From Candidatus Tenderia sp. (lineage in GTDB: Bacteria; Pseudomonadota; Gammaproteobacteria; Tenderiales; Tenderiaceae), in the NCBI GenBank assembly GCA_031416075.1, contig JANOSY010000093.1, positions 1 to 51,664 of the forward strand: DNA of 51,664 nucleotides, in the 5' to 3' direction. The position numbers were made by a program, and so were the translations under genes. Numbering within the stretch: position 1 is the stretch's first letter; every line of letters starts with the position of its first letter. The notes beneath the pieces are model-generated. The model saw only the letters and a program-made list of their open reading frames with translations. It did not search any database and had not been told where the DNA came from. Shown here piece after piece: positions 1,885 through 35,344 of the stretch.

Positions 1885-1899
1885 AAAAGTGGCAGCATT

Positions 1900-2010: not shown

Positions 2011-2021
2011 TCCCCACAAAT

Positions 2022-2049
2022 AAAAAAGCGCCCGATTTTCACCGGACGC
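2022..2049 (-). terminator. Intrinsic terminator of glnK-amtB
   Basis: Minus strand GCGTCCG-GTGAAAAT-CGGGCGC followed by TTTTTT. Confidence 0.7.
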
Positions 2050-2080
2050 CAAGCACCTTACCTGGGAGGAGTGGTGTTTA

Positions 2081-3484: not shown

Positions 3485-3501
3485 CGTTCTACCTCTCCTG
3501 C

Positions 3502-3849
<348 letters not shown>

Positions 3850-3923
3850 CTAGACTCAAATCCAAACACAGAGGCCACCGGCCCCGCTCACCCATATCTA
3901 CAATCCATTTGTGCGTTTTACAG

Positions 3924-3939
3924 AGCACAACCTGTGCCA
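3924..3939 (-). promoter_or_regulatory. Sigma-54 (-24/-12) promoter of glnK-amtB
   Basis: Minus strand TGGCACAGGTTGTGCT (GG-N10-GC) about 85 bp upstream of glnK, with an AT-rich IHF-like tract just upstream. Confidence 0.75.
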
Positions 3940-4002
3940 ATGAATAAAAATGATATATTTCAATTATATAAACAATAAAGAACGCCACGCCCAGCCACTC
4001 TC

Positions 4003-4049
4003 GCACCAAAAAACAACAGCCATCCCTCACCGCGCACCAAAACAGACCA
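4003..4049. promoter_or_regulatory. Putative tandem NtrC binding sites
   Basis: GCACCAAAA half-sites at 4003 and 4034 (31 bp apart) upstream of the sigma-54 promoter. Confidence 0.5.
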
Positions 4050-4115
4050 TTCATCTCGCCCGGAAAAATCCAGTAAAAATAACGTACACTTGGCCAATAA
4101 AACCAAAGGAGAGAC

Positions 4116-4382
4116 GTGGTGATAGACCCAAAAATATTTGATGACCTGACCCGCAAACTGGCAGACGCCGTACCCCCTGGCATAAAAGGGCTGCAAAGCG
4201 ATCTGGAGCGTAACTTCCACGCCATTTTGCAGAGCACATTCAACAAACTGGAGCTGGTCACCCGTGAGGAGTTTGAGGTACAAACCGCGCTGCTGGCCCG
4301 GACCCGCGCCAAACTGGATGCGCTGGAAAAAGCAGTGGCGGCGCTGGAACAGAAAGGCCCACCCCGTACAACCGCTGAATAA
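4116..4382 (+). CDS. ubiK: Ubiquinone biosynthesis accessory factor UbiK (YqiC/BMFP)
   Basis: LELVTREEFEVQ...LARTRAKLDALE motif; conserved position between glnK and comM. Confidence 0.88.
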   Translation: MVIDPKIFDDLTRKLADAVPPGIKGLQSDLERNFHAILQSTFNKLELVTREEFEVQTALLARTRAKLDALEKAVAALEQKGPPRTTAE

Positions 4383-4384
4383 CC

Positions 4385-5899
4385 ATGTCGCTTGCCATCG
4401 TTTACAGCCGTGCCGGCACTGGCATCGACGCCCCACTGGTCACGGTGGAGGTGCATCTGGCCAACGGCCTGCCGGGTCTGGCCATCGTGGGGTTACCAGA
4501 AGCGGCGGTTAAAGAGAGCAAAGACCGTGTCCGTGGCGCACTGCTGAATAGTCGCTTCGAGTTCCCGGCACGACGCATCACCATCAACCTCGCCCCCGCC
4601 GACCTACCCAAAGAGGGGGGCCGTTTTGATCTGCCCATTGCCCTTGGCATCCTGGCCGCCTCTGGGCAGATCCCTAAAAACCTGCTGGAACAGTATGAAT
4701 TTGCTGGCGAGCTGGCACTCAGCGGGGCACTGCGGCCAATCCGCGCCGTGCTGCCCGCCGCCAGCCAGTGCCGCAACGCTGGGCGGGCACTGATACTGCC
4801 ACTGGAGAGCAGTGCCGAGGCAACCCTGGCGGGCGACATCATCGTGTTTGGTGCCGGCCACCTGCTCGAAGTATGTGCCCACCTCAACGGCACAGCGTTG
4901 CTCACCCCACAGCCGCCTATGGCCATCCCCAACCATCCCAATACCCATCTCAACATCAATGATGTGCGTGGCCAACACCACGCCAAACGGGCCCTGGAGA
5001 TTGCCGCCGCTGGCGGTCACTCACTATTGATGGTCGGCCCGCCCGGCACCGGTAAAACCATGCTTGCCAGCCGCCTGCCCACCATTCTGCCCACCATGAC
5101 CGAAGATGAAGCGCTGGAGAGTGCCGCCGTGCAGAGCATCAGCCAAAATGGCTTTGATCCGGCCAACTGGAAACAGCGCCCATTTCGCTCCCCCCACCAC
5201 ACCGCCTCCGGCGTGGCGCTGGTGGGCGGTGGCAGCACACCGCGCCCCGGTGAAATCTCCCTCGCCCACAATGGTGTGATGTTTCTCGATGAACTGCCGG
5301 AGTTTGATCGCCGAGTACTGGAGGTACTGCGCGAACCGCTGGAGTCCGGCAAGGTCACCATCTCCCGCGCCGCACGACAGGCCGAGTTCCCCGCCCGTTT
5401 CCAGCTCATCGCCGCCATGAACCCCTGCCCCTGCGGCTACCTGGGCGATGCCAACGGTCGCTGCAAATGCACCATCGAACAGGTACAGCGGTATCGTGGT
5501 CGCATCTCCGGGCCGATCCTCGACCGCATCGACATGCACATTGAGGTCCCACCCCTGGCAAAAGAGCAGCTCTACGGCGAACGGGACAAGCAAGCCGAAG
5601 GGAGCGCCACCGTCAGGCAGCGGGTTGAAGCCGCCAGGGCGTTACAGCAGCAACGTGCTGGCAAAGCCAACCACCAGCTCAACAGCCGTGAAGTAGAACA
5701 GTTTTGTCTGTTGGAAAAAAAGGATCAGGCACTGTTAGAACAAGCGATTGATCGACTCGGACTCTCCGCCCGCGCCGCCCACCGCATCCTGCGCGTGGCT
5801 CGCACCATCGCCGATCTCGGCAACAACGAACAGATCACCACAGCACATTTAAGCGAGGCGATTAGCTATCGCCGTCTTGATCGCACTCTGCGCTCATGA
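4385..5899 (+). CDS. comM: YifB/ComM Mg-chelatase-like AAA+ ATPase
   Basis: INLAPADLPKEGGRFDLPIA, Walker A GPPGTGKT, FRSPHHTAS and AMNPCPCG motifs. Confidence 0.93.
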   Translation: MSLAIVYSRAGTGIDAPLVTVEVHLANGLPGLAIVGLPEAAVKESKDRVRGALLNSRFEFPARRITINLAPADLPKEGGRFDLPIALGILAASGQIPKNLLEQYEFAGELALSGALRPIRAVLPAASQCRNAGRALILPLESSAEATLAGDIIVFGAGHLLEVCAHLNGTALLTPQPPMAIPNHPNTHLNINDVRGQHHAKRALEIAAAGGHSLLMVGPPGTGKTMLASRLPTILPTMTEDEALESAAVQSISQNGFDPANWKQRPFRSPHHTASGVALVGGGSTPRPGEISLAHNGVMFLDELPEFDRRVLEVLREPLESGKVTISRAARQAEFPARFQLIAAMNPCPCGYLGDANGRCKCTIEQVQRYRGRISGPILDRIDMHIEVPPLAKEQLYGERDKQAEGSATVRQRVEAARALQQQRAGKANHQLNSREVEQFCLLEKKDQALLEQAIDRLGLSARAAHRILRVARTIADLGNNEQITTAHLSEAISYRRLDRTLRS

Positions 5900-6206
5900 G
5901 ATCAACCCGCGTCAGATAAAACTCAAATATGTTAATTTTTTTACATTTATCACCCATCCCCAAATATACCCATCACATCAGGCTTCTACCCCTACCCATT
6001 ACAGGGTCTTTTCAATACGCTGCACTTATTGGCCGCTGGCGTGCGGCTTACCACACTGTTCAACACCCATTTACAAATCTAACTCACGTTACCCATTTTG
6101 TTAGTCAGGAGACTGTTCAAGTTAAATGCTTCCCTTTTGGCAGAGCAATCGTTACCCTTTTGCCGTATGTTGGGGATGTAAATATAAAAATATGAAGGCG
6201 ATAATA

Positions 6207-8465
6207 ATGACAGAGGCTCCACAGAATGGCCTAAAGGGGATTAAACATTGGCGTTACGACCTGCTCGCGGGGATGCAGGTTGCCTTGGTTTCTCTTCCAC
6301 TCTCCTTGGGTATCGCGATTGCATCGGGGGCTCCTCCGGTGACCGGTCTAATTTCTGCAATTATTGCAGGGTTAATCTTTCCGTTCCTGGGTGGCGCTTA
6401 TGTCACTATCAGTGGCCCTGCTGCAGGCTTAGCGCCTGCGTTATTGGCCGGTATGTTGATGCTGGGGGGAGGAGATTTAGCTGCGGGTTATCCGCTGTTA
6501 CTAGTTGCTATTTGTATCACCGGGCTAGTGCAGATTGTGCTCGCCTTTATGAATGCCGGCCGCTTTGCCATATTTTTACCCGTCACGGTGGTGGAGGCCA
6601 TGCTCGCCGCCATCGGTTTAATCATCATCATTAAACAGCTACCGCCATTAATGGGAGCGATGCTTCCAGCAGCCTCCAACATATTGGGGTCTGTCACAAA
6701 GTTACCGCAGGCGGCGATGCAAATGCATCCGGGGGTGTTTGTCATCGGCGCGATCAGTCTGTTTCTGATTTTTTATCTCAACAAATGTCGTCATAACTGG
6801 GCACGTAAAGTGCCGCCACCGTTAGTGGTGGCGATTCTCGGTATCGTTCTCGGATATGTCTTCAATCTTGATGCTAAATACCTCATTACCATGCCGGAAG
6901 ACTTGTTGAAAAATGGCATTACTATGCCGGCATTTGGCGAAGCTTTTAATCGTCCAGAGCTATGGTGGGGCATCTTGGTGGTTGTGATTACGTTAACATT
7001 GATTGACGGCGTGGAGTCGCTGGCGACGATTAAGGCGATTGATAAAATCGACCCCTTTCAACGTAAGTCTGACCCCAATATCACCTTGCGGGCCATGGGG
7101 GTATCGAACTCTCTTTCCAGCATTTTTGGTGGTTTGACGATTATTCCGGGGGGCATTAAGAGCAGTACCAATGTCGATGCGGGGGGGCGTACGCTGTGGG
7201 CAAACTTCTACAATGCGATGTTCTTGCTGCTGTTCCTGTTTGTCGCCAGCGACATTATCGCACGCATCCCGTTAGCGGCGATTGCTGCAATTCTCATCTA
7301 TGTAGGATGGAAGCTCTGCGAATACAAGGTCTTCACAAAAACCTACGCCATTGGCCGAGATCAGATTGTGATCTTTGTGACGACGGTTGTGGCGATACTC
7401 GCCACCGATTTACTGGCGGGTATTTTGATCGGCATCGCAGCCGAGATATTGATACTGCTCTATTTATTAACCCCATCACTACGTTTTGTTCTGAATGGAC
7501 GACTGACGGCACAACAGTCATGGGGACTGTTGTGGGCAAATTTTCGGAGTTTGTTTGGCTCGCCTATTATCAACATCAAAGAGCAACAACAAAATGGCCA
7601 TCCTCACTACGAAATTACGCTGTCATCGGTGGTCTGTTTTAATTTGCTGGCACTGGATAAGATTTTGGCTAATTTGCCGGAAAAACATGGCGTCACACTG
7701 ATCATTACTGAATCCGGTCGCATCATTGACCATACAGGCATGGAGTATCTGCACCAGTTCAAAGAGGAGTGTCTGCGTGATGGTCGTGCTTTTGAGTTGC
7801 AAGGATTGGAAAACTTTTTTCAGTTCACGCAGCACTCACTCTCTGCCCGTATGCAGGATGCCACTTTACTGAAAGAGCAGGCCAAACGCAGTCAGCGTGA
7901 AGAGGAGATGGCAGCACTGGCGGCACAATACCAGCTGGCCTTTAAACCAGATACAGTCAGCATCGTAAACGAACATGACTTCATCTACTTGCGCCGCGGT
8001 ACAGACAAACAAGAGTATCACGTGATGCATGGCAGTTTTCTCGGGGGTGAAGTTCGGCTGTTTGACTATAGCCATACCGCCGCACCGGCTTATTACAGCA
8101 ACCATTGGCACACCATTATCACGCTGGATGTGCCTAATGCTCAAAACAGCGTGGCAGATTTCGTAATTGTGCCTGGGCATTATCTGGAACGTTATTTAGT
8201 CGACTTTAAAGAGCAAAAGCTTGAAGCGGATAATTATGGTTTTGCCGAACACTATCGACTCTATGGTAAAAATGAACAGGCCAAGCCAACACTGAGCAAT
8301 GATATGAAGCAGTATTTCATGCAGCATCAAAGCCTCTACTTGGAAGTGCGTAATGGCGTGATGATGGCGTTTCTACAGGATAAGGAGCTAGCCACGGCTA
8401 AAGAGATAGCAATGTTGTTTGATTTGGCCCGGCGCTTCAAGGAGGAGTATTTACAGCAGGTTTAA
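6207..8465 (+). CDS. SulP/SLC26 anion (sulfate/bicarbonate) transporter with C-terminal extension
   Basis: DLLAG..VALVSLPLSLGIAIASG and ISGPAAGL SulP motifs, then a STAS-like segment (IIDHT). Start chosen at ATG 6207; 6192 is an alternative. Confidence 0.88.
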   Translation: MTEAPQNGLKGIKHWRYDLLAGMQVALVSLPLSLGIAIASGAPPVTGLISAIIAGLIFPFLGGAYVTISGPAAGLAPALLAGMLMLGGGDLAAGYPLLLVAICITGLVQIVLAFMNAGRFAIFLPVTVVEAMLAAIGLIIIIKQLPPLMGAMLPAASNILGSVTKLPQAAMQMHPGVFVIGAISLFLIFYLNKCRHNWARKVPPPLVVAILGIVLGYVFNLDAKYLITMPEDLLKNGITMPAFGEAFNRPELWWGILVVVITLTLIDGVESLATIKAIDKIDPFQRKSDPNITLRAMGVSNSLSSIFGGLTIIPGGIKSSTNVDAGGRTLWANFYNAMFLLLFLFVASDIIARIPLAAIAAILIYVGWKLCEYKVFTKTYAIGRDQIVIFVTTVVAILATDLLAGILIGIAAEILILLYLLTPSLRFVLNGRLTAQQSWGLLWANFRSLFGSPIINIKEQQQNGHPHYEITLSSVVCFNLLALDKILANLPEKHGVTLIITESGRIIDHTGMEYLHQFKEECLRDGRAFELQGLENFFQFTQHSLSARMQDATLLKEQAKRSQREEEMAALAAQYQLAFKPDTVSIVNEHDFIYLRRGTDKQEYHVMHGSFLGGEVRLFDYSHTAAPAYYSNHWHTIITLDVPNAQNSVADFVIVPGHYLERYLVDFKEQKLEADNYGFAEHYRLYGKNEQAKPTLSNDMKQYFMQHQSLYLEVRNGVMMAFLQDKELATAKEIAMLFDLARRFKEEYLQQV

Positions 8466-8496
8466 TCACCCATTAACCGTATTTAATTGATGCCGG

Positions 8497-8530
8497 AAAG
8501 GGTTTGGTAGTGATCACCAGACCCTTTTTT
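8497..8530 (+). terminator. Intrinsic terminator
   Basis: AAAGGGTTTGGT-AGTGATC-ACCAGACCCTTTTTT. Confidence 0.75.
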
Positions 8531-9074
8531 GTGGGGCACATAATTAATACCCGCGTCTTAGGTATCGCTGCAACATGGGGAAATCCAGGCACGGGGGCTA
8601 TAAACAGCATCTCCATCCCAAACCCAAACTCTCATTGACTCTACCTCGCCTTTCACAGGGGCTATCGTGAAACAGATACTGGACACGGTAAGTTCAGCAC
8701 TCTTTTTGTACACACGAGGCACATCACGCCACCACTCGTTACATCAAATACCAAGCATTATTTATATACTGGCATTCGTTTAGTTTACAGATCCATCCGT
8801 TCATTTCCGCTTGGGCACAGAAAACGTGCCCACCCTTTAAATACTTTATCTGGCCTCCTCTAAAGAAAGGGACACTCATGCCGCTAATCACGTCTGGATG
8901 TCATCTTGCTAGCCTTGGAATCCCTCTCTTACGCTATCGCTATTGGTCATGGTTTGATCATTGTGGCTGCCGTGCCTGAAAATTGAGAGGTGAACATTTC
9001 CGGAGAAGTCATGGCCATCTGATAGTAAAGGATAGTCACTATTGAATCGTTAAAATTTTTGGGGAAGTTCTATC

Positions 9075-23021: not shown

Positions 23022-23843
23022 ATGAACATCACCACTGTCATCCTGCAAGCAACAACACAGATCGACCGCCTCGACGCCGAGGCACTGCTCTGCCACCTGC
23101 TGCAACGCGACCGCAGCTACCTGCGCACCTGGCCCGAGCGTGAAGTGGCGGACAACCTGATTGCACAGTTCAATGCACTGGTGGCGCGCCGCCAGCAGGG
23201 CGAACCACTCGCCTACCTCATCGGCTGGCGCGAGTTCTGGTCACTCCGGCTCCACGTCACCCCCGCCACCCTGATCCCGCGCCCCGAGACCGAGCTGCTG
23301 GTAGAACAAGCGCTAGAACGCATCCCCCGCACCGCCCAGTGGCAGATCGCCGACCTCGGCACCGGCTCCGGCGCCATCGCCCTGGCCATCGCCAGCGAAC
23401 GGCCAAACTGCCAGCTGGTCGCCACCGACTTCAGCCCGACAGCATTGCAAGTAGCCGCAGGCAACGCCACGCAACTCGGCATCCACAACATTGAATTTCG
23501 TCACTGCAGCTGGTGTGAAGCGCTGGCCAACAACAGATACCAGATGATCGTCTCCAACCCGCCCTACATCGACGCCAGCGACCACCACCTGCAACATGAC
23601 GGCCTGCCCTTTGAGCCGCAAAGCGCCCTTACTCCTGGTGGCGACGGCCTGGCCGCATTGCGTATTATCATCGATCACGCCCGCCCACACCTCGCCACCC
23701 CCGGCTGGCTGCTGCTGGAACATGGCTACAATCAGGGCGAGATGGTGCGTGAACTGCTGCAACAAGCGGGCTATCATGGGGCAATCACCCTTCAGGACCT
23801 TGGTGGCCAGGAGCGCCTTACCCTGGCCCAACTCACTGTATAA
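23022..23843 (+). CDS. prmC: Release factor glutamine methyltransferase
   Basis: LIPRPETE, DLGTGSGAI and SNPPYI motifs. Confidence 0.97.
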   Translation: MNITTVILQATTQIDRLDAEALLCHLLQRDRSYLRTWPEREVADNLIAQFNALVARRQQGEPLAYLIGWREFWSLRLHVTPATLIPRPETELLVEQALERIPRTAQWQIADLGTGSGAIALAIASERPNCQLVATDFSPTALQVAAGNATQLGIHNIEFRHCSWCEALANNRYQMIVSNPPYIDASDHHLQHDGLPFEPQSALTPGGDGLAALRIIIDHARPHLATPGWLLLEHGYNQGEMVRELLQQAGYHGAITLQDLGGQERLTLAQLTV

Positions 23844-23863: not shown

Positions 23864-24271
23864 ATGGACAGACTCAGACTCCCCCGCCCCCTGGTCAACC
23901 AGATATTGACCCAGGCGCAACACTCACCCGAGGCCGAAATCTGCGGCCTGATCGCTGCCAAAAATGGCGCCGCCAGCCGCTGCTACCCCGTGCACAACGC
24001 CGCCGCCGACCCCGTGCACCGCTACCGGATGGAGCCACAGGCGCAGATCGAAGCACTGCGGCAGATGCGCGAGGCGGGAGAAGAGCTGCTGGCGATCTAC
24101 CACTCCCACCCCCATACACCGCCCACCCCCTCCAGCAGCGACATCGAAGAGGCCAACTATCCTGATGCGGTCTACCTGATCATCTCGCTCGACATCAAAG
24201 GGGTGTTGCAGATCTCCGCCTTTTGCATTGCCAATGGTACCGCCAGCCCGCTGGTGCTGGAGCTGCTCTGA
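23864..24271 (+). CDS. JAB/Mov34 (M67) metallopeptidase
   Basis: E-ICG...YHSHP....PS..D JAMM motif. Confidence 0.9.
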   Translation: MDRLRLPRPLVNQILTQAQHSPEAEICGLIAAKNGAASRCYPVHNAAADPVHRYRMEPQAQIEALRQMREAGEELLAIYHSHPHTPPTPSSSDIEEANYPDAVYLIISLDIKGVLQISAFCIANGTASPLVLELL

Positions 24272-24317: not shown

Positions 24318-25949
24318 ATGCTCGACGATATTAAAAAAACCCTCTGGGCAGCCGCCGACAAGCTGCGCGCCAACATGGATGCCGCCGAATACAAACACCT
24401 CGTGCTGGGGCTGATCTTCCTCAAGTACGTCTCCGACACCTTTGCCGCCCGCCGGGCGGAGCTGGAGCGGCGCTTTGCGGACGAGGCCGACGACTACTTT
24501 CTGCCCGATTGCACCCCTGAACTGCTGGCGGCCGAACTGGAAGACCGCGACTACTACACCGAAGTGAACGTCTTCTGGGTGCCGGAGACCGCCCGCTGGG
24601 AGGCGCTGCGCGCCGCCGCCAAACAGCCCGACATCGGCAAACGTATCGACGATGCACTGGTCGTCATCGAGGTAGAGAACCCCAAGCTCAAGGGCATACT
24701 CGACAAGCGCTACGCCCGCGCCCAGCTGCCGGACGGCAAGCTCGGCGAGCTGGTGGACCTCGTCTCCACGATCGGCTTTGGTGACGATCCCGGCAAGGCC
24801 CGCGACGTGTTGGGACAGGTCTATGAATACTTCCTCGGCCAGTTCGCCAGCGCCGAAGGCAAACGCGGCGGCAATGATCTCACGCCGCGAAGCGTTGACT
24901 GGCTATTGGTCTCTGTTCTCGCCCCACTTCGCGGCAAAGTGTATGACCCCTGCTGTGGCGTTGGTAGCACGCTTGCGCTCTCTTCAATATATTCAAAATC
25001 GCACGGTGGCAAGCTCGGTGATGTTGCGTTATTCGGGCAGGAATCCAACCCCACCACTTGGCAGTTGGCGACAATGAGTTTCGCTATTCGCGGCATCGAC
25101 TGCAACCTGGGGCGCGAACCGGGCGATACCTTCACCAAAAACCAGCACCCCGACCTGCGCGCCGACTTCATCGTGGCAGGCCCGCCGTTCAACACCAGCA
25201 ACTGGTGGCACGGCAGCCTCACCGGCGACCCGCGCTGGGAGTTCGGCGACCCACCCGCCGGCAACGCCAACTACGCCTGGTTGCAGCACATGCTCTACCA
25301 CCTCAAACCCAGCGGCCGCGCCGGGATTGTGCTCGCCAACGGCTCCATGAGCTCCAGCCAGAACAGCGAAGGCGACATCCGCCGCGCCATGGTCGAGGCC
25401 GACGTGGTGGAGGTGATGATCGCCCTGCCCGGCCAGCTCTTCTTCAACACCCAGATCCCCGCCTGCCTCTGGTTTCTGGCCAAACAGAAGAGCAGCCGCA
25501 AGGGCGAGGTGCTGTTCATCGACGCCCGCAAGCTCGGCACCATGATCAGCCGGGTACAGACAGAGCTGGCCGACACGGTGATAGAGCGCATCGCCACCAC
25601 CGTGGCCGCATGGCGTGGCGAAATCCCCCTCAATCCCCCTTTTGCAAAGGGGGAGGCAACCATTCCTGCGACTGAACACGTTCCCCCCTTTGAAAAAGGG
25701 GGGCCAGGGGGGATTTACCAGGACACCCCCGGCTATTGCCGCAGCGTCAAGCTGGCGGAGATTGCCGAACACGGCCACGTGCTCACCCCCGGCCGCTATG
25801 TCGGTGCCGAGGCGGTGGAAGATAACGACGAAGCCTTTGCCGACAAGATGCAGGCCCTCACGGAGAAGCTGGGGGAGCAGATGGCGAAGGGGGCAGAGCT
25901 TGACCAGTTGATCCGGCAGAAGCTGGGAGGGTTGGGGTATGAGTTCTGA
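24318..25949 (+). CDS. hsdM: Type I RM modification subunit HsdM with non-canonical SAM-binding and catalytic motifs
   Basis: LWAAADKLR, LGLIFLKY, YDPCCG, GQESN, GNANYAWLQH and LTPGRYVG motifs; motif IV reads GPPF (25179-25190). Confidence 0.92.
   Translation: MLDDIKKTLWAAADKLRANMDAAEYKHLVLGLIFLKYVSDTFAARRAELERRFADEADDYFLPDCTPELLAAELEDRDYYTEVNVFWVPETARWEALRAAAKQPDIGKRIDDALVVIEVENPKLKGILDKRYARAQLPDGKLGELVDLVSTIGFGDDPGKARDVLGQVYEYFLGQFASAEGKRGGNDLTPRSVDWLLVSVLAPLRGKVYDPCCGVGSTLALSSIYSKSHGGKLGDVALFGQESNPTTWQLATMSFAIRGIDCNLGREPGDTFTKNQHPDLRADFIVAGPPFNTSNWWHGSLTGDPRWEFGDPPAGNANYAWLQHMLYHLKPSGRAGIVLANGSMSSSQNSEGDIRRAMVEADVVEVMIALPGQLFFNTQIPACLWFLAKQKSSRKGEVLFIDARKLGTMISRVQTELADTVIERIATTVAAWRGEIPLNPPFAKGEATIPATEHVPPFEKGGPGGIYQDTPGYCRSVKLAEIAEHGHVLTPGRYVGAEAVEDNDEAFADKMQALTEKLGEQMAKGAELDQLIRQKLGGLGYEF
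25621..25716. repeat. 96-bp palindromic miniature element inserted in frame in hsdM
   Basis: Terminal IR AAATCCCCC/GGGGGATTT enclosing two CCCCCTTT..AAAGGGGG hairpins; exactly 32 codons long. Confidence 0.75.
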
Positions 25950-25950
25950 G
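25933..25950 (+). repeat. Direct repeat copy 1 of the hsdM-stop/hsdS-start junction (copy 2 at 27065-27082)
   Basis: TGGGGTATGAGTTCTGAG is identical at both positions and flanks the first DUF1016 gene. Confidence 0.85.
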
Positions 25951-25982
25951 CAACAACATAATCCAAAAGTGGAGGATGAATC

Positions 25983-27074
25983 ATGAGTGATGAGCTGACA
26001 CCATTGCCTGACTCCCCCGTCGCATCAGCCGTGCCTAGTGGTTACGGCGATTTCCTGCTGGAAATAAAAGCACAAATACGCCAGCGCCAGTTTCAGGCAT
26101 TACGCGCCGCCAATCGCGAGCTGCTGCAACTGTATTGGTGGCTGGGCGAAAACATCAGCCGCCGCCAAGCCGAGCAAGGTTGGGGCAAAGCGGTGGTCGA
26201 GAATCTGGCGCGTGACCTGCAAGCCGAGTTCCCCGGACGTAATGGTTTCTCGACCCAAAACCTCTGGGCGATGCGGCAGTTTTTTAACGAATACCGCGAG
26301 AAACCAAATCTCCAATCGTTGATAGGAGAAATTAGCTGGGCTAAAAATCTGCTCATCATCGCGCGCTGCAAGGACGATCTAGAGCGTGAATTTTACCTCC
26401 GCGCCACCGCCCGTTTCGGCTGGACAACCAAAGTATTGCAACACCAGCTCGACAACCACAGCTACGCCCAATACCTCAACGGCCAAACCAACTTTGATAA
26501 AACCTTACCCGGCACCATCAAAGCACAAGCCATGCTGGCGGTTAAAGACCACTACACCTTCGACTTTCTTGGCCTCTCCGAAGCCCATTCCGAGCGTGAA
26601 CTGGAAGAAGCCCTCGTGCGTAACCTGCGCCGCTTCCTTGCCGAAATGGGCGGCGCATTCACCTTCGTCGGCAACCAATATCGCCTCGAAGTGGACGGCA
26701 AAGAATACTTCATCGACCTGCTGCTATTTCACCGTCGCCTGCGTTGCCTCGTCGCCATCGAACTCAAAATCGGCGAATTCAAACCCGAGCACAAAGGCCA
26801 AATCGAGTTTTATCTGGACACCCTCGACCAACAACACCGCATCGAAGGCGAAAACCCAGCCATCGGCATCGTCATCTGCCGCAGCAAAGCCAAAACCATG
26901 GTCGAGTACGCCCTGCGCACCGCTAACCATGCACTCGGCATCGCCACCTATACCGTCACCCCGCAACTCCCCGCCAGCTACCGCGATGACCTGCCCAGCC
27001 CGGAACAAATTGTTGCACGCTTGCAAGGCTGGGCGGGGGATAGTGATGATGAAGATGAGGGGGCTGGGGTATGA
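25983..27074 (+). CDS. DUF1016/YhcG PD-(D/E)XK nuclease-domain protein (copy 1)
   Basis: N.ELL.LYW..G, WGK.VV..LA.DL, KD.Y.FDFL and YFIDLL...VAIELK motifs. Confidence 0.92.
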   Translation: MSDELTPLPDSPVASAVPSGYGDFLLEIKAQIRQRQFQALRAANRELLQLYWWLGENISRRQAEQGWGKAVVENLARDLQAEFPGRNGFSTQNLWAMRQFFNEYREKPNLQSLIGEISWAKNLLIIARCKDDLEREFYLRATARFGWTTKVLQHQLDNHSYAQYLNGQTNFDKTLPGTIKAQAMLAVKDHYTFDFLGLSEAHSERELEEALVRNLRRFLAEMGGAFTFVGNQYRLEVDGKEYFIDLLLFHRRLRCLVAIELKIGEFKPEHKGQIEFYLDTLDQQHRIEGENPAIGIVICRSKAKTMVEYALRTANHALGIATYTVTPQLPASYRDDLPSPEQIVARLQGWAGDSDDEDEGAGV

Positions 27075-28306
27075 GTTCTGAGTGGGTAGAAACAACATGG
27101 GGTGATGTTGCAACGCTTGAGTACGGCAAAGCTATACGTGATTACCAGAACGCTAAAGGTGAGTTTCCAGTGTATGGCACCAATGGGGCGATTGGCTGGC
27201 ATCACGCTCCATTGTGCAATTCAGCCGGGGTTGTGATTGGAAGGAAGGGAGCATATCGAGGCATTCATTACAGCAAAAAACCGTTTTTTGTTATCAACAC
27301 AGCTTTTTACCTAAAGCCGAAGACTCAAGTAAATATGAAGTGGGCTTATTACTGTCTGCTTACTTATGACATCAATGGCATGGATTCTGGATCGGCGATT
27401 CCGTCCACAAGTCGAGATGAGTTTTATAAGCTGCCCGTCAGACTTCCAAGTTTGAATGAACAAGAACGAATCGCCGAAGTATTGAGCATATTCGACGACC
27501 GCATCGCCCTCCTGCGTGAAACCAACGCCACCCTTGAAGCCATCGCCCAGGCGCTGTTCAAATCATGGTTTGTCGATTTCGACCCCGTGCACGCCAAGCA
27601 ACAAGGCATCGCGCCGGTAGGGCTGGACGAGGCGACTGCTGCGCTCTTTCCTGACAGCTTCGAGGAGTCGGCGCTGGGGTTGGTGCCGAAGGGGTGGCGG
27701 GTAGCGCCGGTTGGTGATGTTGTGGAAAGCGTTGGCGGTGGCACACCTGATACCAAGGAGCCAAGCTATTGGGAATCCGGCATACATTGCTGGACAACCC
27801 CCAAGGACTTGTCTGGTATCCATGCTCCAGTACTGATGACCACTGAACGCAAACTTACAATCAAGGGGCTGGCAAAAGTAAGTTCGGGTCTTCTGCCTAC
27901 TGGGACACTGCTGATGTCCTCGCGTGCCCCAATTGGCTACCTCGCCATTGCGCAAGTTCCGCTGGCTATTAATCAGGGCTACATTGCCATACTGCCCAAT
28001 AGCCAGCTTCCGCCGCTATATATGCTGTTCTGGTGCAGGCAGAACATGGAAATCATCAAGGGTCGGGCGAATGGTTCCACTTTCATGGAAATCAGCAAGA
28101 AAGCCTTTCGACCAATTCCTGCACTTGTGCCACCCATGCCAGTGATTGAGGCATTTGTCGGTGTAGCTGGCACTCTGTTTAACCGCCTTGTCGAAAACGA
28201 GAAACAAGCCCAAACCCTCGCCACCCTCCGCGACACCCTGCTCCCCCGCCTGATCTCCGGCCAACTGCGCCTGCCGGAGGCCGAGGCCCTGCTGGAGAAG
28301 GCTTGA
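27071..28306 (+). CDS. hsdS: Type I RM specificity subunit HsdS
   Basis: Two TRDs with conserved spacers (EQERIA...LFKSWFVDF; VPKGW; LRDTLLPRLISG). Confidence 0.93.
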   Translation: MSSEWVETTWGDVATLEYGKAIRDYQNAKGEFPVYGTNGAIGWHHAPLCNSAGVVIGRKGAYRGIHYSKKPFFVINTAFYLKPKTQVNMKWAYYCLLTYDINGMDSGSAIPSTSRDEFYKLPVRLPSLNEQERIAEVLSIFDDRIALLRETNATLEAIAQALFKSWFVDFDPVHAKQQGIAPVGLDEATAALFPDSFEESALGLVPKGWRVAPVGDVVESVGGGTPDTKEPSYWESGIHCWTTPKDLSGIHAPVLMTTERKLTIKGLAKVSSGLLPTGTLLMSSRAPIGYLAIAQVPLAINQGYIAILPNSQLPPLYMLFWCRQNMEIIKGRANGSTFMEISKKAFRPIPALVPPMPVIEAFVGVAGTLFNRLVENEKQAQTLATLRDTLLPRLISGQLRLPEAEALLEKA

Positions 28307-28520
28307 GATGTTGCCGCTGCGCTTATTCAAGTTTTCTTTCATAACCTCGCGACATATTAAAGACCGCTTTAATATGGCCAGGATTCATGGAAGAACCCTT
28401 GCCAGCTTGGTGGCGGCGGATCGGCAGCGCCTGCTAGAGGATTACTGAGATGGTGATCCTACATTTGGTCAGCCGCTTGCTGGCCCATTCGGCACTCAGG
28501 CAGTAGGCTGCTGCCCGATC

Positions 28521-28609
28521 TATACATGTCGCAGTCGATCTGTATAGAAAAAACCGGATTTCTATACACGTCGCTGGCAATATGTATAAAAAATAGGACT
28601 TTCTATACA
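28521..28609. repeat. Tandem array of TGTATA...TATACA palindromes with 41-42 bp period (related copy at 29733-29785)
   Basis: TATACA at 28521, 28563 and 28604; TGTATA at 28541 and 28583; TTTCTATACACGTC is shared with the fic upstream region. Confidence 0.75.
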
Positions 28610-28633
28610 AGTCGCATCCTGGGATTCACTGAA

Positions 28634-29689
28634 ATGACGCCACGTAATGCCCCTTTTATTCTGCCCGATGGCTACACCGACTGGTTGAATCAGCTCAAGC
28701 AGGATATCGCCAAAACCCAGCAACGTGCCGCGCTGGCAGTGAATGCCGAACTGGTGCAGCTATACGGGCGGATTGGACAGGAGATTTTGAACCGGCAGGA
28801 GAGACAGGGCTGGGGGGCGAAGGTGATTGATCGTTTGGCGCATGATTTGAAAGATGCGTTTCCGAACATGCGCGGCTGGTCATCCAGCAACCTCAAGTAC
28901 ATGCGTTTTTTCGCCCAGCATTGCCCAAACGGGCTAATTGGTCAGCAGCCTGCTGACCAATTGCCGTGGTTCCATATTGTGACGCTGCTGACCAAGCTGG
29001 ACGATGCTGCCGAACGGGAGTGGTATGCCCTGCAAACCGTGCAGCAGGGGTGGTCACGCATGACACTGGAACTGAATATCAAGAACCGTCTGCAACAGCG
29101 CCAGGGCGTGGCCGTGACCAATTTTGTGGCGCGTTTGCCATCTGCCGATTCGGCCTTGGCACACGAAACACTGAAAGATCCTTACCTGTTCGATTTTCTC
29201 GGCTTGGGCAATGACGCACATGAGCGGGAGATCGAAGATGGCCTGATCCGCCATATCACCCGTTTTCTGCTGGAGTTGGGTGCGGGCTTCGCCTTTGTCG
29301 GGCGGCAGTTCCGGCTGGAGGTGGCTGGCGATGAGTTCTTCATTAATCTGCTCTTCTATCACACGCGCTTGAAGTGCTACGTGGTGGTGGAGCTGAAAGC
29401 CACCGCTTTCAAACCTGAACACGCTGGACAGCTCAACTTTTACCTTGCTGCTGTGGATGCCCAAGTCAAAGCCGATGATGACAAACCGACCATCGGTCTG
29501 TTGCTGTGCAAGCAACAGAACCGGCTGGTAGCGGAATATGCGCTGTCCGGCATCGAAAAACCCATCGGCGTGGCCGAATATCAATTGCTGCGCGATCTGC
29601 CAGAAACGCTGGGGCGTAGCCTGCCCAGCATTGAAGAGATTGAAGCCGAATTGGCAGAAGATTTAAACATGCCGGATACGCTGGAATGA
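28634..29689 (+). CDS. DUF1016/YhcG PD-(D/E)XK nuclease-domain protein (copy 2)
   Basis: Same family motifs as copy 1; start set at ATG 28634 because the longer ORF only reads through the palindrome array. Confidence 0.9.
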   Translation: MTPRNAPFILPDGYTDWLNQLKQDIAKTQQRAALAVNAELVQLYGRIGQEILNRQERQGWGAKVIDRLAHDLKDAFPNMRGWSSSNLKYMRFFAQHCPNGLIGQQPADQLPWFHIVTLLTKLDDAAEREWYALQTVQQGWSRMTLELNIKNRLQQRQGVAVTNFVARLPSADSALAHETLKDPYLFDFLGLGNDAHEREIEDGLIRHITRFLLELGAGFAFVGRQFRLEVAGDEFFINLLFYHTRLKCYVVVELKATAFKPEHAGQLNFYLAAVDAQVKADDDKPTIGLLLCKQQNRLVAEYALSGIEKPIGVAEYQLLRDLPETLGRSLPSIEEIEAELAEDLNMPDTLE

Positions 29690-29711
29690 CCGAAGACCAA
29701 CTCGAACAGGA
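29686..29711 (+). repeat. Direct repeat of the hsdR 5' end (true copy at 30995-31020)
   Basis: ATGACCGAAGACCAACTCGAACAGGA is identical (26 bp) at both positions and flanks fic. Confidence 0.9.
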
Positions 29712-29804
29712 AGCACTACACGTCACTTCCAGATTTTCTATACACGTCCCCCTCGATGTGTATAAAAATACCGATTTTCTATACATAACCTCTACGGTGA
29801 GTGA

Positions 29805-30887
29805 ATGATCAACTTCGACCGGGCCAAGCCTTATAACGATCTCCCCTTGTTACCCCCTGCTTTTGAACTGGAAAGCAAGGCGGTTTTGAAGCAGACCATT
29901 GCGGCGCGGGCGGCATTGGCCGACTTGAAAGGCGCGGCTCACAGGCTGCCGAATCAAGGTGTACTGATTCAGGCGGTGGGGTTGCAGGAGGCCAAGCTCT
30001 CTTCTGAAATTGAAAACATTGTGACGACCAACGATGCGTTGTTTCGCGGCTTTGCCAATGACGGTGAGGGTTCAGATCCGATGACCAAGGAGGTACTCCA
30101 CTACAAGGATGCGCTGTGGTCTGGATTTGCCTCGGTCAAAGAGGGAATGCCGCTGACGACACGCTTGTTTGAGACGCTGTATCGCACCGTCAAGCAGGCG
30201 GATGATGGTGTGCGACGCTTGCCCGGTACGCGTTTGTCTAATCCATTCGGAGAGACGATCTACACGCCACCAGAAGGCGAAACGGTTATTCGCGATAAGC
30301 TGGCGGACCTGGAGCGCTTCATCAACGAGCCATCCGATCTCGATCCATTGGTGCGGCTGGCGGTGATGCATTACCAGTTCGAGGCGATTCACCCTTTCCC
30401 GGATGGCAATGGTCGCGTGGGGCGGATTCTTAATATCCTCTATCTGCTTTCTGAACGCTTACTGGATGTGCCTATTCTTTATCTCTCCCGCCACATCATC
30501 GAGAACAAGGCCGATTATTATCGAGGGCTGGCTGGCGTAACCGAGCGCGAAGAGTGGGAACAGTGGGTTATGTATATTCTGCGGGCCATCGAGAGTACCG
30601 CCAATACGACCCGTGATCGAATTCTGGCCATCGTGGCGTTGATGGAAGAGGCGACTACCAAAGCAGAGGCGGTGCTGCCCAAGGTGCAGGTCCCCGCCAT
30701 TCTGGGGGTCGTGTTCCGTCACCCCTACTGTAAAGTGCGTTTTCTGGAAGAGGCTGGACTTGGCTCCCGACCCACTTGCACCAAGTATTTGAAGGCGTTG
30801 TCTGGCATCGGCTTGCTGCGTGAACAGGCTGTCTGGCGTGAGAACTACTATATCAACGATGCATTTTTCAATGTTTTGGTGGAGTAG
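29805..30887 (+). CDS. fic: Fic/DOC family protein (class II, probable AMP transferase with C-terminal wHTH-like region)
   Basis: Fic motif HPFPDGNGRVGR and N-terminal autoinhibitory SSEIEN motif. Confidence 0.92.
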   Translation: MINFDRAKPYNDLPLLPPAFELESKAVLKQTIAARAALADLKGAAHRLPNQGVLIQAVGLQEAKLSSEIENIVTTNDALFRGFANDGEGSDPMTKEVLHYKDALWSGFASVKEGMPLTTRLFETLYRTVKQADDGVRRLPGTRLSNPFGETIYTPPEGETVIRDKLADLERFINEPSDLDPLVRLAVMHYQFEAIHPFPDGNGRVGRILNILYLLSERLLDVPILYLSRHIIENKADYYRGLAGVTEREEWEQWVMYILRAIESTANTTRDRILAIVALMEEATTKAEAVLPKVQVPAILGVVFRHPYCKVRFLEEAGLGSRPTCTKYLKALSGIGLLREQAVWRENYYINDAFFNVLVE

Positions 30888-30994
30888 CCCGATGGCTCAT
30901 GTTAAAAATAGTTACATGAGCTGTTCATCATGTAAAAAATGTAGCGATTTCTTTACATGACAAAGCGATCATGTAAAAACTTAGTGAGTAACAG

Positions 30995-33900
30995 ATGACC
31001 GAAGACCAACTCGAACAGGAGACACTGGGCTGGCTGGCCGATGTGGGCTATACGGTACAGTACGGCCCTGATATTGCGCCCGACAGGGTGACTGGCGAGA
31101 TCAGAGAGGTTGCCATCAGTTATGGCAACAGCCAAACGCGCAGTGACTACCGCCAGGTGGTGCTGCTGGAACGGCTGCGGGCGGCGGTCAATAAGCTCAA
31201 CCCCACCATCCCTGTTGCCGCCCGTGAAGATGCGATCAAGCAGGTGGTTGATCTGGGCACTCCTGTGCTGCTCTGCGCCAACCGCCGCTTCCACCAGCTG
31301 CTGGTGACGGGTGTGCCGGTGCAGTATCAGAGGGAGAGCGAGACCCGCGGTGACTTTGTGCGGCTGGTGGATTGGGCAGAACCTGCCAAAAACGAGTGGC
31401 TGGCGATCAACCAGTTTTCCATCAAAGGCCCGCGCCATACCCGCCGCCCGGACATTATCCTGTTCGTGAACGGCCTGCCGCTGGTACTGCTGGAGCTGAA
31501 GAACCCCGCCGACAAAAACGCCGACATCTGGAAGGCGTTTGACCAGATTCAGACCTACAAGGCGCAGATCCCCGACCTGTTCCAGTACAACGAACTGCTG
31601 GTGATATCCGATGGCAGCGAGGCACGCCTGGGCGGTCTATCGAGCAGTGCCGAGCGCTTCATGCAGTGGCGCACCATTGATGGCGTGGCGCTGGACCCGC
31701 TGGGACAGTTCAACGAACTGGAGACGCTGGTGCGCGGGCTGCTGGCCCCGGCCACTCTGCTGGACTATCTGCGTTTCTTCGTGCTGTTCGAGGATGACGG
31801 CACGCTGGTGAAGAAGATTGCCGGCTATCACCAGTTTCACGCGGTGCGGGCGGCCATCACGCAGGTGGTGGCGGCCTCGCGCCCCGGCGGCAGCCACAAG
31901 GGCGGCGTGGTCTGGCATACCCAGGGCAGCGGCAAGAGCATCACCATGACCTGCTTTGCTGCACGGGTGATGCAGGAAGCGGCGCTGGAGAACCCGACCA
32001 TCGTGGTGATCACGGACCGCAACGATCTGGACGGGCAGCTGTTCGGGGTCTTCTCCCTGGCGCAGGATCTGCTGCGTGAACAGCCGGTGCAGGTGGAGAC
32101 GCGCCAGGATCTACGCGCCAAGCTCGGCAATCGCCCCTCGGGCGGCATCGTCTTTGCCACCATCCAGAAGTTTATGCCCGGCGCGAATGAAGATACCTTC
32201 CCGCTGCTCTCTGAGCGCCACAACATCGTGGTGATTGCCGATGAGGCGCACAGAACACAGTACGGCTTCGAGGCGACCCTGAAGGGCAAGCCCGGTCAGG
32301 AGAAGTATCAGGTCGGATATGCGCAGCATCTGCGCGATGCGCTGCCCAACGCCACCTTTGTCGCCTTCACCGGCACGCCGGTCTCGTCGGAAGACCGCGA
32401 CACCCGCGCCGTCTTTGGCAACTACATCCACATCTACGACATGCAGCAGGCCAAGGAGGATGGCGCCACCGTTGCCATCTACTTTGAATCCCGGCTGGCC
32501 AAGCTGGCGCTCAATCCCGAAGAGCTGCCGCTGATCGATGCTGAGGTCGATGAGCTGGCCGAGGATGAGGAAGAGAGCCAGCAGGCCAGACTGAAGAGCC
32601 GTTGGGCGGCGCTGGAAAAGGTGGTGGGGGCCGCGCCGCGCATCACCCGTGTGGCCGCCGATCTGGTCGCCCACTTCGAGGAGCGCAACAAGGCACAGAG
32701 CGGCAAGGCGATGGTGGTCGCCATGAGCCGCGAGATCTGCGTCCACCTCTACGATGAGATCATCAAGCTGCGCCCGGAGTGGCACGACGCCGATCCGGAA
32801 AAGGGGGCGATCAAGATCGTGATGACCGGCTCGGCCAGTGACAAGGCGCTGCTGCGCCCGCACATCTACAGCGGCCAGATCAAGAAGCGGTTGGAGAAGC
32901 GGTTCAAAGACCCCGCCGACCCGCTGCGGCTGGTGATCGTGCGTGACATGTGGCTGACCGGCTTCGACGCCCCCTGCGTCCATACGCTCTACGTCGACAA
33001 GCCGATGAAGGGGCACAACCTGATGCAGGCCATCGCCCGCGTCAACCGTGTCTTCAAGGATAAACAGGGCGGGCTGGTGGTGGACTACATCGGCATCGCC
33101 AACGAGCTGCGCAGCGCACTGAAGGAGTACACCAACAGCCAGGGGCGCGGCCGCCCCACCGTGGACGCCGCCGAAGCCTATGCCGTGCTGGCGGAGAAGC
33201 TCGACATACTGCGTGGCATGTTGCATGGCTACGACTACAGCGACTTCCTCACCACCGGCCACAAACGGTTGGCCGGTGCTGCCAACCATGTGCTGGGCGA
33301 GAAGGATGGCAAGAAGCGTTTTGCCGACACCGCACTGGCGATGAGCAAGGCCTTCACGCTCTGCTGCACGCTCGATGAAGCCAAGGCGGTGCGCGAGGAG
33401 GTGGCCTTCTTCCAGGCCGTGAAAATAATCCTGACCAAGCGTGACATCAGCCAGCAGAAGCGCACGGATGAGGAGCGTGAACTGGCGATCCGCCAGATCA
33501 TCAACTCCGCCGTGGTCTCGGAAGAGGTGGTCGATATTTTCGATGCCGTGGGGCTGGATAAACCCAACATCGGCATCCTCGACGATGCCTTCCTCGCTGA
33601 GGTGCGCAACCTGCCCGAACGTAATCTGGCGGTGGAGCTGCTGGAGCGGTTGCTGGAAGGGGAGATCAAGAGCCGCTTTGCGGGCAATGTGGTGCAGGGG
33701 AGAAAATTCTCCGATCTGCTCAGCAACGTCATCAAGCGCTATCAGAACCGCGCCATCGAAACGGCCCAGGTGATCGAAGAGCTGATCGAGATGGCCAGGA
33801 ACTTCCGTGCCGTTGCCGAGCGCGGCGAAGCGCTGGGCCTGACAGATGACGAGATCCGTTTCTACGATGCACTGGCAGATAACGAATCCGCCGTGCGTGA

Positions 33901-34120
33901 ACTGAACGACGAAACCCTGAAAAAGATCGCCCATGAACTGACCGAAAACCTGCGCCAGAACCTGAGCGTAGACTGGTCAGAGCGCGAAAGCGTCCGCGCC
34001 AAGCTGCGACTGATGGTCAAGCGCATCCTGCGCAAGTACAAGTACCCGCCCGACCAGCAGGAAGCAGCGGTGGAGCTGGTGTTGCAGCAGGCACAGGCGT
34101 TGGGGGAGGCGTGGTTTTAG
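30995..34120 (+). CDS. hsdR: Type I RM restriction subunit HsdR
   Basis: Nuclease RPD...ELK and Q...Y motifs, Walker [13 protein letters not shown] box, FTGTP, MWLTGFD and QAIARVNR. Confidence 0.96.
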
Positions 34121-34254: not shown

Positions 34255-34641
34255 ATGTATAGAAACAGCGCGATTAATATCGATGTAACTCACCAGCGCC
34301 AGCGGGTTTTAACAGAGGCGGTCATCAATGCCGCCGAGATCATGGGGCTGAATCAGGCCCTGCTGGCACAAACGATTGGTGTCAGCGGCTCCTCTGTCTC
34401 ACGCATGAAGACGGGGGATTATCTGCTCAAAGAGAAGAGCAAGGAGTGGGAGCTGGCCGCACTCCTGGTCCGGCTCTTCCGCAGTCTGGATGCCATTGTG
34501 GCGGGGGATGAGCGCTCGCTGCGGTCATGGCTTAAAGGCTACAACACCGCACTCAAAGAGATACCGCTGAACATCATTACCACCGTTTCAGGACTGGCAA
34601 AAACTGTTGATTATGTGGACGCCTACCGCGCTCGCGTCTGA
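34255..34641 (+). CDS. Xre/MbcA/ParS-type antitoxin
   Basis: HTH (LAQTIGVSGSSVSR) plus C-terminal WL...N..L...P...GL..V.YVDA; GGAG RBS before ATG 34255; overlaps the RES gene. Confidence 0.88.
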   Translation: MYRNSAINIDVTHQRQRVLTEAVINAAEIMGLNQALLAQTIGVSGSSVSRMKTGDYLLKEKSKEWELAALLVRLFRSLDAIVAGDERSLRSWLKGYNTALKEIPLNIITTVSGLAKTVDYVDAYRARV

Positions 34642-35344
34642 GGTTCGCCGCCGCGTGGGGGCGGCATGGCGGGTGGTCGAGGGGCAACATACCGTCTCAA
34701 CACGCAAACTTGTGGCCACCCAAGATGATCAGGCGCTGCTGGAGGATATTCTGGAGGCGACAAAACCACCGGTGCCCCAGGAGGCAGCAGGGCTCCACTA
34801 CCTGTTACACACCCCCTTCCGCTACGATGCCCCCTATCCGATTGGCTCACGTTTTCGCCGTGCCGGCTCCACTGAAGGTGTCTTTTACGCCTCTGAGCAG
34901 ATCCGCACTGCCCTGGCCGAGTATTGCAACTACCGAATCCGGTTTTTCAACGAGTCTCCCGCCACCATTTTGCCCTGCAATCAGGAGTGTTTGTCACTCT
35001 TTTCAGTGGATTACAGCTCTACCCGGACGGTGGATCTCACCCAGCCACCGTTTTTAAATGACAGGCAGCGCTGGACCCATGCCACGGATTACCTGCCCAC
35101 ACAGGCGTTTGCTGATACGGCCCGGCAGGCCGGTGTTGAGATAATCCGCTATGAGTCGGTGAGAGATATTGAACCCGGGATTAATATTGCCCTGCTCTCC
35201 CCCGCTGCGTTTGCATCAAAGCAGCCCAAAACGGTGCAGACCTGGTTTCTCTATCTGTCAGAGGCCGAGGCTAACTGCAAACGTGCCAATGCCAATAACC
35301 ACAACGAGCAGTGGACATTTAAACAGACGCAGTTTGCGGTTTAA
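34613..35344 (+). CDS. RES-domain toxin (putative NAD+ phosphorylase)
   Basis: GSRFR...GVFYAS....ALAE...Y.SVR RES signature; paired with the antitoxin. Confidence 0.88.
   Translation: MWTPTALASEVRRRVGAAWRVVEGQHTVSTRKLVATQDDQALLEDILEATKPPVPQEAAGLHYLLHTPFRYDAPYPIGSRFRRAGSTEGVFYASEQIRTALAEYCNYRIRFFNESPATILPCNQECLSLFSVDYSSTRTVDLTQPPFLNDRQRWTHATDYLPTQAFADTARQAGVEIIRYESVRDIEPGINIALLSPAAFASKQPKTVQTWFLYLSEAEANCKRANANNHNEQWTFKQTQFAV

Follow-up and report, generated by a model that had tools for sequence, protein, structure and literature searches.

A Type I restriction-modification system of Candidatus Tenderia with a rebuilt HsdM pocket that belongs to a rare subfamily and may no longer make the ordinary methyl mark

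Introduction

Type I restriction-modification is the textbook example of self DNA being marked, and the mark being read, by one and the same subunit. Here we describe such a system on a contig of Candidatus Tenderia sp. (GenBank assembly GCA_031416075.1, contig JANOSY010000093.1), which was analysed over positions 1 to 51,664 and is called the window below. Its modification subunit, HsdM, has lost two residues on which marking depends in a related enzyme, and the system is otherwise intact. This raises the question of how the cells that carry it protect their own DNA.

An earlier interpretation made from the letters alone, here called the sequence-only reading, had proposed that the S-adenosylmethionine (SAM) pocket and the catalytic motif of this HsdM were rewired by selection and not by decay. 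The best explanation of our data is a rare, old and selectively maintained HsdM subfamily, defined by a rebuilt cassette of about 75-105 codons that holds motifs X, I, II and IV. At roughly even odds (probability about 0.5), judging from sequence, the altered protein would be a non-methylating or differently acting M subunit within a system that is still able to restrict.

An altered pocket in HsdM

The gene and its altered segments, with codons numbered from the start of hsdM, are the following.

24318..25949, + strand: hsdM, 543 aa (P0001); Pfam N6_Mtase (6.5e-92) and HsdM_N (2.7e-23); best solved relative 3khk_A (E 2.5e-139)
24864..25085, + strand: dense part of the variant patch, codons 183-256, with motif X, motif I and motif II; delimited by identity and by G+C content at third codon positions (GC3) against the canonical allele L024
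24870..24887, + strand: motif X, GNDLTP (canonical GQFYTP), G185-P190, with D187 in place of the aromatic-cage Phe
24945..24974, + strand: motif I, DPCCGVGSTL (canonical DPCCGSGGMF), D210-L219, from translation and homologue alignment
25068..25082, + strand: ATMSF (canonical AAMNL), A251-F255, from translation and homologue alignment
25173..25190, + strand: motif IV, VAGPPF (canonical LANPPF), V286-F291, with G288 in place of the catalytic Asn

Translation of 24318-25949 confirmed all four altered motifs of the sequence-only reading, and the canonical forms that it had quoted matched the clade consensus exactly. Among 23 aligned close homologues (79-92% identical) 21 were canonical at all four motifs and two (P0004 and P0015) were variant. 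The structure 3khk_A and the PacII subunits M1 and M2 (7vru) were canonical at the altered sites as well. Motif IV of amino-methyltransferases reads (D/N/S)PP(Y/F/W), and it was found to be GPPF in the window; the pocket Phe of motif X (AGEF/GGQF type) was replaced by Asp187 in all 35 variants that are described in the next section.

A genome of the same genus (G006) has a canonical hsdM, L024, at the same prmC-JAB-hsdM locus. Codon comparison with this allele bore out that the changes are multi-nucleotide, with pairs (window/L024) such as AAT/CAG, GAT/TTC, TGG/AAA, GTT/TCC and GGC/AAC. In segments of 20 codons the nucleotide identity to L024 was 52-73% where differences were densest (segment starts 181-221) and 78-83% in the rest of the patch, as compared to about 88-95% in most segments of the flanks. 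Sparser differences reached codon 295 and included the change from AAC to GGC at codon 288. The loss of GC3 in the patch, also noticed earlier, was found again: the value for codons 183-256 was 0.58, compared with 0.91 in L024 and with 0.82 and 0.91 in the two flanks of the window gene, and segment by segment it was 0.45-0.70 in the patch against 0.75-0.95.

Such a stretch could stem from the decay of a silent gene, or from a chimera made in assembly or binning, and both the 95-contig state of the assembly and the deviating GC3 of the patch would agree with this. We consider it highly improbable. The reading frame is open, and contigs assembled from public runs of three studies matched the patch. 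A contig of X1, which may be the source sample, covered 24708-25169 with 0 differences, a contig of X5 covered 24835-25017 with 0 differences, and a contig of X4 covered 24944-25085 with 1 difference. Single contigs crossed the patch or its left border, and one such metagenome also held the canonical continuation at that junction. Furthermore, the patch was present in 35 protein clusters and in nine species genomes, the same substitutions were invariant across lineages, and the ratio of nonsynonymous to synonymous substitution rates (dN/dS) was far below 1. The sequence-only reading had named missing read support and a singleton variant as outcomes that would speak against it, and neither was found: the reads support the patch, and 30 of the 35 clusters that carry it have GPPF.

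A variant subfamily

Homologues were collected with a search limited to residues 183-292, and all 210 fetched proteins were classified. The patch was found in 35 of the 210 homologue clusters, the window included; by alignment count 30 of them had GPPF and five had NPPF. NPPF was present in all non-variant homologues (175/175). To give substitution frequencies, the 35 variants were compared with 151 canonical sequences, 500-560 residues long, which are invariant at the sites concerned.

F187D: 35/35 variants
I193V: 35/35 variants
V194D: 35/35 variants
K195W: 35/35 variants
T196L: 35/35 variants
Q221L: 35/35 variants
M218T: 34/35 variants
F219L: 34/35 variants
I226S: 34/35 variants
A199S: 33/35 variants
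A191R: 32/35 variants
N288G: 30/35 variants

Ten residues were invariant or nearly so among the variants (D187, V193, D194, W195, L196, S199, T218, L219, L221 and S226). Residue 186 changed from the canonical Q to D or N. Position 254 was N in 151/151 canonical sequences and was H in 19, N in 14 and S in two of the variants.

The subfamily is rare but widespread. With a variant-specific DNA motif pattern nine loci were detected among 185,579 species genomes, in Methylococcaceae (including one cultured Methylovulum isolate), Comamonadaceae and Burkholderiales assemblies, and one variant cluster had members on 157 and on 51 contigs. All of 80 metagenome loci were canonical, so that they could be used as controls, and none was variant, a result that was obtained with generic search patterns and hence gives no frequency estimate. 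Plasmids yielded 0 variants in 846 matching records of 72,556, with a top identity of 65%. No description of a GPPF HsdM subfamily was found in the literature, in a search that took in inactive or decoy HsdMs, Ronin, modification-dependent Type I enzymes and a Methylovulum methylome, with supplements and REBASE outside its scope. The genes are currently annotated as SAM-dependent DNA methyltransferases.

Origin and selection of the cassette

In a tree of the patch (residues 183-260) all 33 usable variants of 33 fell into one clade with a support of 0.998; this monophyly is partly circular, and to that extent counts against our interpretation, because the patch itself served to define the variant groups. 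The tree of the flanks is free of this circularity, and in it the same variants were dispersed over 17 separate clades among canonical sequences. One clade for the patch and 17 for the flanks indicate a single origin followed by spread between hsdM alleles. The patch thus has one origin and moves by recombination inside hsdM. The kinship of HsdR agrees with such recombination between hsdM alleles, as the HsdR of the window had its nearest relative in a canonical system (89%) and shared only about 80% identity with the HsdRs of other variant systems. Patch GC3 was below flank GC3 in every variant locus. This fits a recombination tract with a history of its own; GC-biased conversion in flanks with more frequent recombination would be compatible with it too.

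Natural hybrids were seen in five proteins (P0095, P0112, P0124, P0138 and P0142), which combine the variant motif X and motif I with a canonical FILANPPF. They were scattered within the patch clade and have the appearance of recombinants whose breakpoints fell between codons 257 and 285. The reverse hybrid, with a canonical pocket and GPPF, was found in 0/175 sequences, compared to 5/35 for a variant pocket with NPPF. This asymmetry suggests that loss of the Asn by itself is not tolerated. If so, it would be the patch that allows Gly288, through either another catalytic arrangement or a pocket that no longer engages ordinary adenine.

Within the patch, dN/dS between variant loci was 0.02-0.17 wherever dS was measurable, which indicates purifying selection on the patch. 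Nor has G288 drifted, as G and N are the sole residues at this position. Constraint at the old pocket positions had changed at the same time. Mean column entropy over residues 186-288 was 0.651 in the variants versus 0.145 (range 0.096-0.178) in size-matched canonical samples, and the flanks were equal. Residues 186-288 contain 71 positions that are at least 99% invariant in the 151 canonical sequences; seven of them were fixed to another residue in the variants and 28 were variable, whereas the canonical-invariant positions of the two flanks were changed at 0/80 and 0/78. The clustering of changes that had been noticed before is therefore far beyond chance. The ratio of nonsynonymous divergence (pN) in the patch to that in the flanks was about 1.4 among variants versus about 0.6 among canonical genes, based on the DNA of nine variant and 26 canonical loci. 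These data show purifying selection on the patch together with relaxed constraint on the old pocket positions. Selected change in place of decay, as the sequence-only reading had it, is upheld by the spread over at least 35 clusters, the (near-)invariant substitutions, the low dN/dS, and hsdS and an intact hsdR that were always present.

Residues lost and kept in the pocket

HMMER alignment to PacII M1 (7vru_A) placed F171 of AGEF on D187 and N276 of NPPF on G288. According to the PacII study (PMC9613975), the target base lies in an aromatic cage of F180, P287, Y288 and F373, the side chain of N285 hydrogen-bonds the target amine, and the amine is held by the Asn side chain and the carbonyl of the next Pro. 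The same study reports that F180A makes no N4-methylcytosine (m4C) and that F171A and N276A/F279A impair N6-methyladenine (m6A). In a study of m4C in Type I systems (PMC5100572), conversion of NPPF or NPPY to APPA abolished the corresponding mark. Taken together, the alignment and the mutants indicate that the variant is without two pocket determinants, the cage Phe187 and Asn288. The joint loss of these residues is stronger evidence against ordinary catalysis than the changes in motif I, and from homology to the PacII mutants we infer that methyl transfer has been lost.

Other parts of the pocket were kept. D210, G214, T189-P190, PPF and F375, the last being the equivalent of PacII F373, were conserved in the variants. 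Position 242 (motif II) was E in 21 and D in 14 of the 35 variants, position 270 (GDTF motif) was D in 31 and N in four, and position 288 was only G or N. We take D210, E242 and D270 to be cofactor contacts, as in this class of methyltransferases. Given the conservative E/D and D/N variation, the pocket probably still binds the adenosyl cofactor, and the loss of SAM binding that had been deduced from motif I does not follow from these data. An AlphaFold2 model made on the alignment of 33 variant sequences had a mean pLDDT (predicted local distance difference test) of 44 and was too poor for use.

Partner subunits

The other two subunits of the system are encoded downstream of hsdM.

27071..28306, + strand: hsdS; Methylase_S (7.5e-33) in two stretches; PADLOC Specificity_I (1e-115)
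30995..34120, + strand: hsdR, intact, 1041 aa; TIGR00348 (616.7 bits); GSGKS and DEAH motifs; nuclease block compared with EcoR124I HsdR

By Pfam and NCBIfam, hsdM, hsdS and hsdR lie in one locus on the + strand (24318-34120). The window system is a Type I system in gene content and in HsdR, and it departs from the class in two sequence features of the M subunit, motif IV and the motif X Phe. HsdM scored 149 bits with the NCBIfam hsdM equivalog TIGR00497 against a cut-off of 242.75, a shortfall that may be a property of the clade rather than an effect of the patch.

hsdS and a full-length hsdR stood beside the variant hsdM in the window and in 5/5 extended variant loci. GSGKS (Walker A) and DEAH (superfamily 2 ATPase) were present in the HsdR of 6/6 variant systems, and the D...ELK block of the PD-(D/E)xK nuclease aligned to EcoR124I HsdR, where these are presumably the catalytic residues. 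The nuclease and helicase motifs of HsdR are thus kept, as had been claimed. The ratio of nonsynonymous to synonymous divergence (pN/pS) of HsdR was 0.171 in variant systems versus 0.188 in canonical systems. When co-adaptation of HsdR was looked for, no variant-specific residue and no common clade of variant HsdRs were found.

The island between prmC and gatB held no second DNA methyltransferase, in agreement with the sequence-only reading, and the check for an hsdM acting in trans that it had called for was also carried out. The genome of the window (99.98% complete, 95 contigs) contained one other N6_Mtase match, a canonical HsdM with 33% identity. In the five other variant genomes the next-best relative of a canonical query was 56% identical in one and at most 41% in four. 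No M subunit of the same family was found in trans in the window genome or in these five. The second HsdM of the window genome belongs to a complete Type I system on contig C8 (locus L003, 1-7715, - strand), beside ferrochelatase and htpG genes; it is 888 aa long, has canonical motifs and extends at its C-terminus into a long coiled-coil-like stretch.

Several points weigh against a loss of methylation. An intact and constrained HsdR without a further M subunit of the family points towards a need of the cell for some self-protection, and the simplest source of it would be a variant M subunit that still modifies DNA. The cassette can enter a restriction-capable canonical system without killing the lineage. 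The retained D210, T189-P190, PPF, F375, E/D242 and D/N270 would fit a SAM-binding pocket, and a catalytic role could have moved to the invariant Asp187 near the conserved Gly288. Motif I, moreover, varies among active methyltransferases of other families. On this basis the protein may still methylate DNA through a re-engineered pocket, in which Asp187 opposite Gly288 positions the amine and m6A or another mark protects the host. Its cassette might then have spread for its cofactor affinity, for resistance to phage countermeasures or for a mark that is missing from the phages of canonical neighbours. We regard this as the main competing reading, possible but less likely than a loss of methylation.

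Besides the equal constraint on HsdR in 6/6 systems, the exchange of the cassette into canonical backgrounds and the kept residues, such an enzyme would account for D187 in 35/35 variants and for the restriction of position 288 to G or N. The absence of GPPF from canonical pockets (0/175) likewise suggests that Gly288 is tolerated only with the patch. Type I M subunits have also changed their target chemistry before, as PMC5100572 and PMC9613975 describe for m4C M2 subunits. The same sources give the main objection, namely that mutation of the PacII cage Phe, or of the Asn together with the motif IV aromatic residue, abolishes or strongly lowers methylation. Our literature search found no active amino-methyltransferase with Gly at the motif IV position, and many sites at which canonical enzymes show no variation, including enzymes with as little as about 50% identity, vary in the variants, which is unusual for a precise active site. 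Finally, according to a review, restriction alleviation means that an unmodified chromosome is not necessarily lethal with Type I systems. Viability alone therefore does not decide between active methylation and its loss, and the earlier statement that restriction without modification is self-toxic was too strong.

Cargo genes of the defence island

The system lies in an island that is bounded upstream by prmC and downstream by gatB, with the following further genes.

23022-23843: prmC, upstream boundary of the island
23864-24271, + strand: Prok-JAB domain gene, directly 5' of hsdM; 93% conserved in the same-genus genome
25983..27074, + strand: first DUF1016/YhcG PD-(D/E)xK nuclease gene, cargo between hsdM and hsdS; PADLOC candidate PDC-S02
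28526..29689, + strand: second DUF1016/YhcG nuclease gene; PADLOC candidate PDC-S02
29805..30887, + strand: gene for a SoFic-like Fic protein; NF046030 (5.4e-132, under its cut-off); PADLOC SoFic (1.2e-110)
34607-35344, + strand: RES-domain toxin gene, directly 3' of hsdR

The genes between hsdM and hsdR in the variant loci were varied, and none of them was a methyltransferase. The cargo comprised the following.

Variant-locus cargo: Schlafen/AlbA_2, AAA_21 with DUF4276, toxin-antitoxin-like genes, zeta-like kinase, Fic and DUF1016

The possibility that the variant loci share an additional partner gene was rejected, as the cargo differs from locus to locus. A DUF1016 gene followed hsdM in 6/9 assessable variant loci (L005/L014, L006/L015, L007/L016, L009, L011 and the window) versus 3/65 canonical metagenome loci that had 1.5 kb or more of downstream sequence, an enrichment in which the variant loci are related to one another and so do not count as independent events.

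These genes bear on another explanation, in which the core of two M subunits and one S subunit serves as a decoy or guard for phage anti-restriction proteins, and a bound DNA mimic triggers abortive infection through the DUF1016 nucleases, SoFic or HsdR. Methylation would be dispensable, as in Ronin, EcoR22I or PrrC-type arrangements. In published accounts of these systems Ronin is independent of HsdM catalysis (F287G mutant) and EcoR22I couples restriction with cell death, and in the window defence-candidate genes detected with PADLOC stand within the operon, along with the DUF1016 excess just given. We nevertheless regard a decoy as quite unlikely. In L024, the canonical allele from the same genus, hsdM is likewise followed by a DUF1016 gene, three variant loci are without one, and canonical loci carry cargo as frequently (hsdM-hsdR gap > 1.4 kb in 26/34). 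Ronin is without hsdR and has NPPF, whereas hsdR was always present here, and the fixation of ten specific residues would be left unexplained.

Two repeats were observed in the hsdM region. The final 18 bases of hsdM (25933-25950), which overlap an hsdS-type start ATGAGTTCTGA, were exactly repeated at 27065-27082, and the first DUF1016 gene thus ends in the peptide GLGYEF, as hsdM does. The repeat resembles a scar left when a cassette entered the junction of hsdM and hsdS, and in L024 a similar duplication flanks its own DUF1016 gene. Within hsdM, two in-frame copies of a 36-bp unit resembling repetitive extragenic palindromes (REP-like) at 25612..25724 encode peptide repeats of the PPF-x-KG type. 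The insert is positioned in the linker before the C-terminal helix of HsdM, outside the variant patch. The genome has eight further copies of the unit, some as inverted pairs, and the copy number varies from 0 to 3 in hsdM homologues. In four metagenomes the contig depth at the insert was 1,500-8,900 compared to at most 1,700 elsewhere, tens-fold above most of hsdM, with loose ends at 25621, 25654 and 25716.

Discussion

The homology to PacII and the relaxed pocket point to a loss of ordinary methylation, and the reading that we prefer is built on this. The rebuilt pocket (F187D, N288G) would no longer carry out ordinary N6-adenine methylation. The variant M subunit would still fold, probably still bind the adenosyl cofactor, and still assemble with HsdS and an unchanged, functional HsdR, so as to act as clamp and sensor of a restriction-capable complex. 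Discrimination of self from non-self would then rest on something other than the system's own m6A mark. Candidates for the replacement are a pocket that engages only altered adenines, as in an enzyme resembling modification-dependent ones, restriction alleviation, and a coupling to the embedded effector genes.

A more far-reaching version is a new form of self/foreign discrimination, in which resident systems would be converted through recombination with a portable cassette of some 100 codons, either into a sequence-specific, modification-dependent Type I enzyme or into one that writes and reads a DNA mark different from m6A. In the modification-dependent form the M subunit would not respond to ordinary or N6-methyl adenine; it would engage only the altered adenines of phages and then license HsdR. 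We find this rather doubtful; it is the pocket changes that suggest a restriction of this Type IV-like kind, with cleavage confined to DNA that bears a modified base.

The sequence-only reading was right about the selected change and wrong to use motif I as evidence for a loss of SAM binding, and the low-GC3 stretch to which it drew attention is better seen as a recombination tract with its own genealogy. The loss of the two marking residues, together with a constrained HsdR and no helper methylase, leaves two alternatives. The subfamily must either methylate through a pocket design that has not been described, or uncouple restriction from its own modification, and either answer alters the annotation of these genes and the assignment of methylomes to genes. 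With a cultured carrier at hand, and a canonical allele of the same genus as a natural control, the question is directly testable. The cassette-like spread also means that catalytic pockets, besides specificity domains, are exchanged between Type I alleles.

Comparison with known systems

According to the literature, Ronin, EcoR22I and PrrC-type guards use Type I components without methyl transfer and have effector genes embedded or adjacent. Ronin is in these accounts a system without hsdR that keeps NPPF and depends on the 61-aa RonA, whereas the system described here has an intact hsdR in 6/6 loci and a rebuilt pocket; with hsdR present and intact, the window does not belong to the Ronin type. 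A loss of the catalytic residue of motif IV, with the fold and the partner function kept, is reported for the N-terminal domain of RsmC, a pseudo-methyltransferase. Such domains act beside an active paralogue, and here an active paralogue of the same family is absent. METTL14 is a further example of a pseudo-methyltransferase.

PacII (PDB 7VRU) is likewise a case of Type I M subunits with a pocket altered in evolution, where M1 with NPPF makes m6A and M2 with NPPY makes m4C. It has two M genes, both of which keep the Asn and the cage Phe, whereas the window has one M gene from which both residues are gone. As its operon has a single hsdM and an NPPY subunit is absent, the window system is not of the PacII-type M1M2S class.

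The closest likeness is to the canonical HsdMs of the same clade (L024 in G006; PDB 3KHK), which share the locus, the length class and the N- and C-terminal parts. Outside the patch L024 has about 90% nucleotide identity to the window gene, and it has the same partners, hsdS and hsdR, as well as a DUF1016 gene downstream. The window allele differs from these canonical alleles at codons 183-256 and in motif IV, with a lower GC3 and a pocket that has a higher rate of evolution than the flanks.

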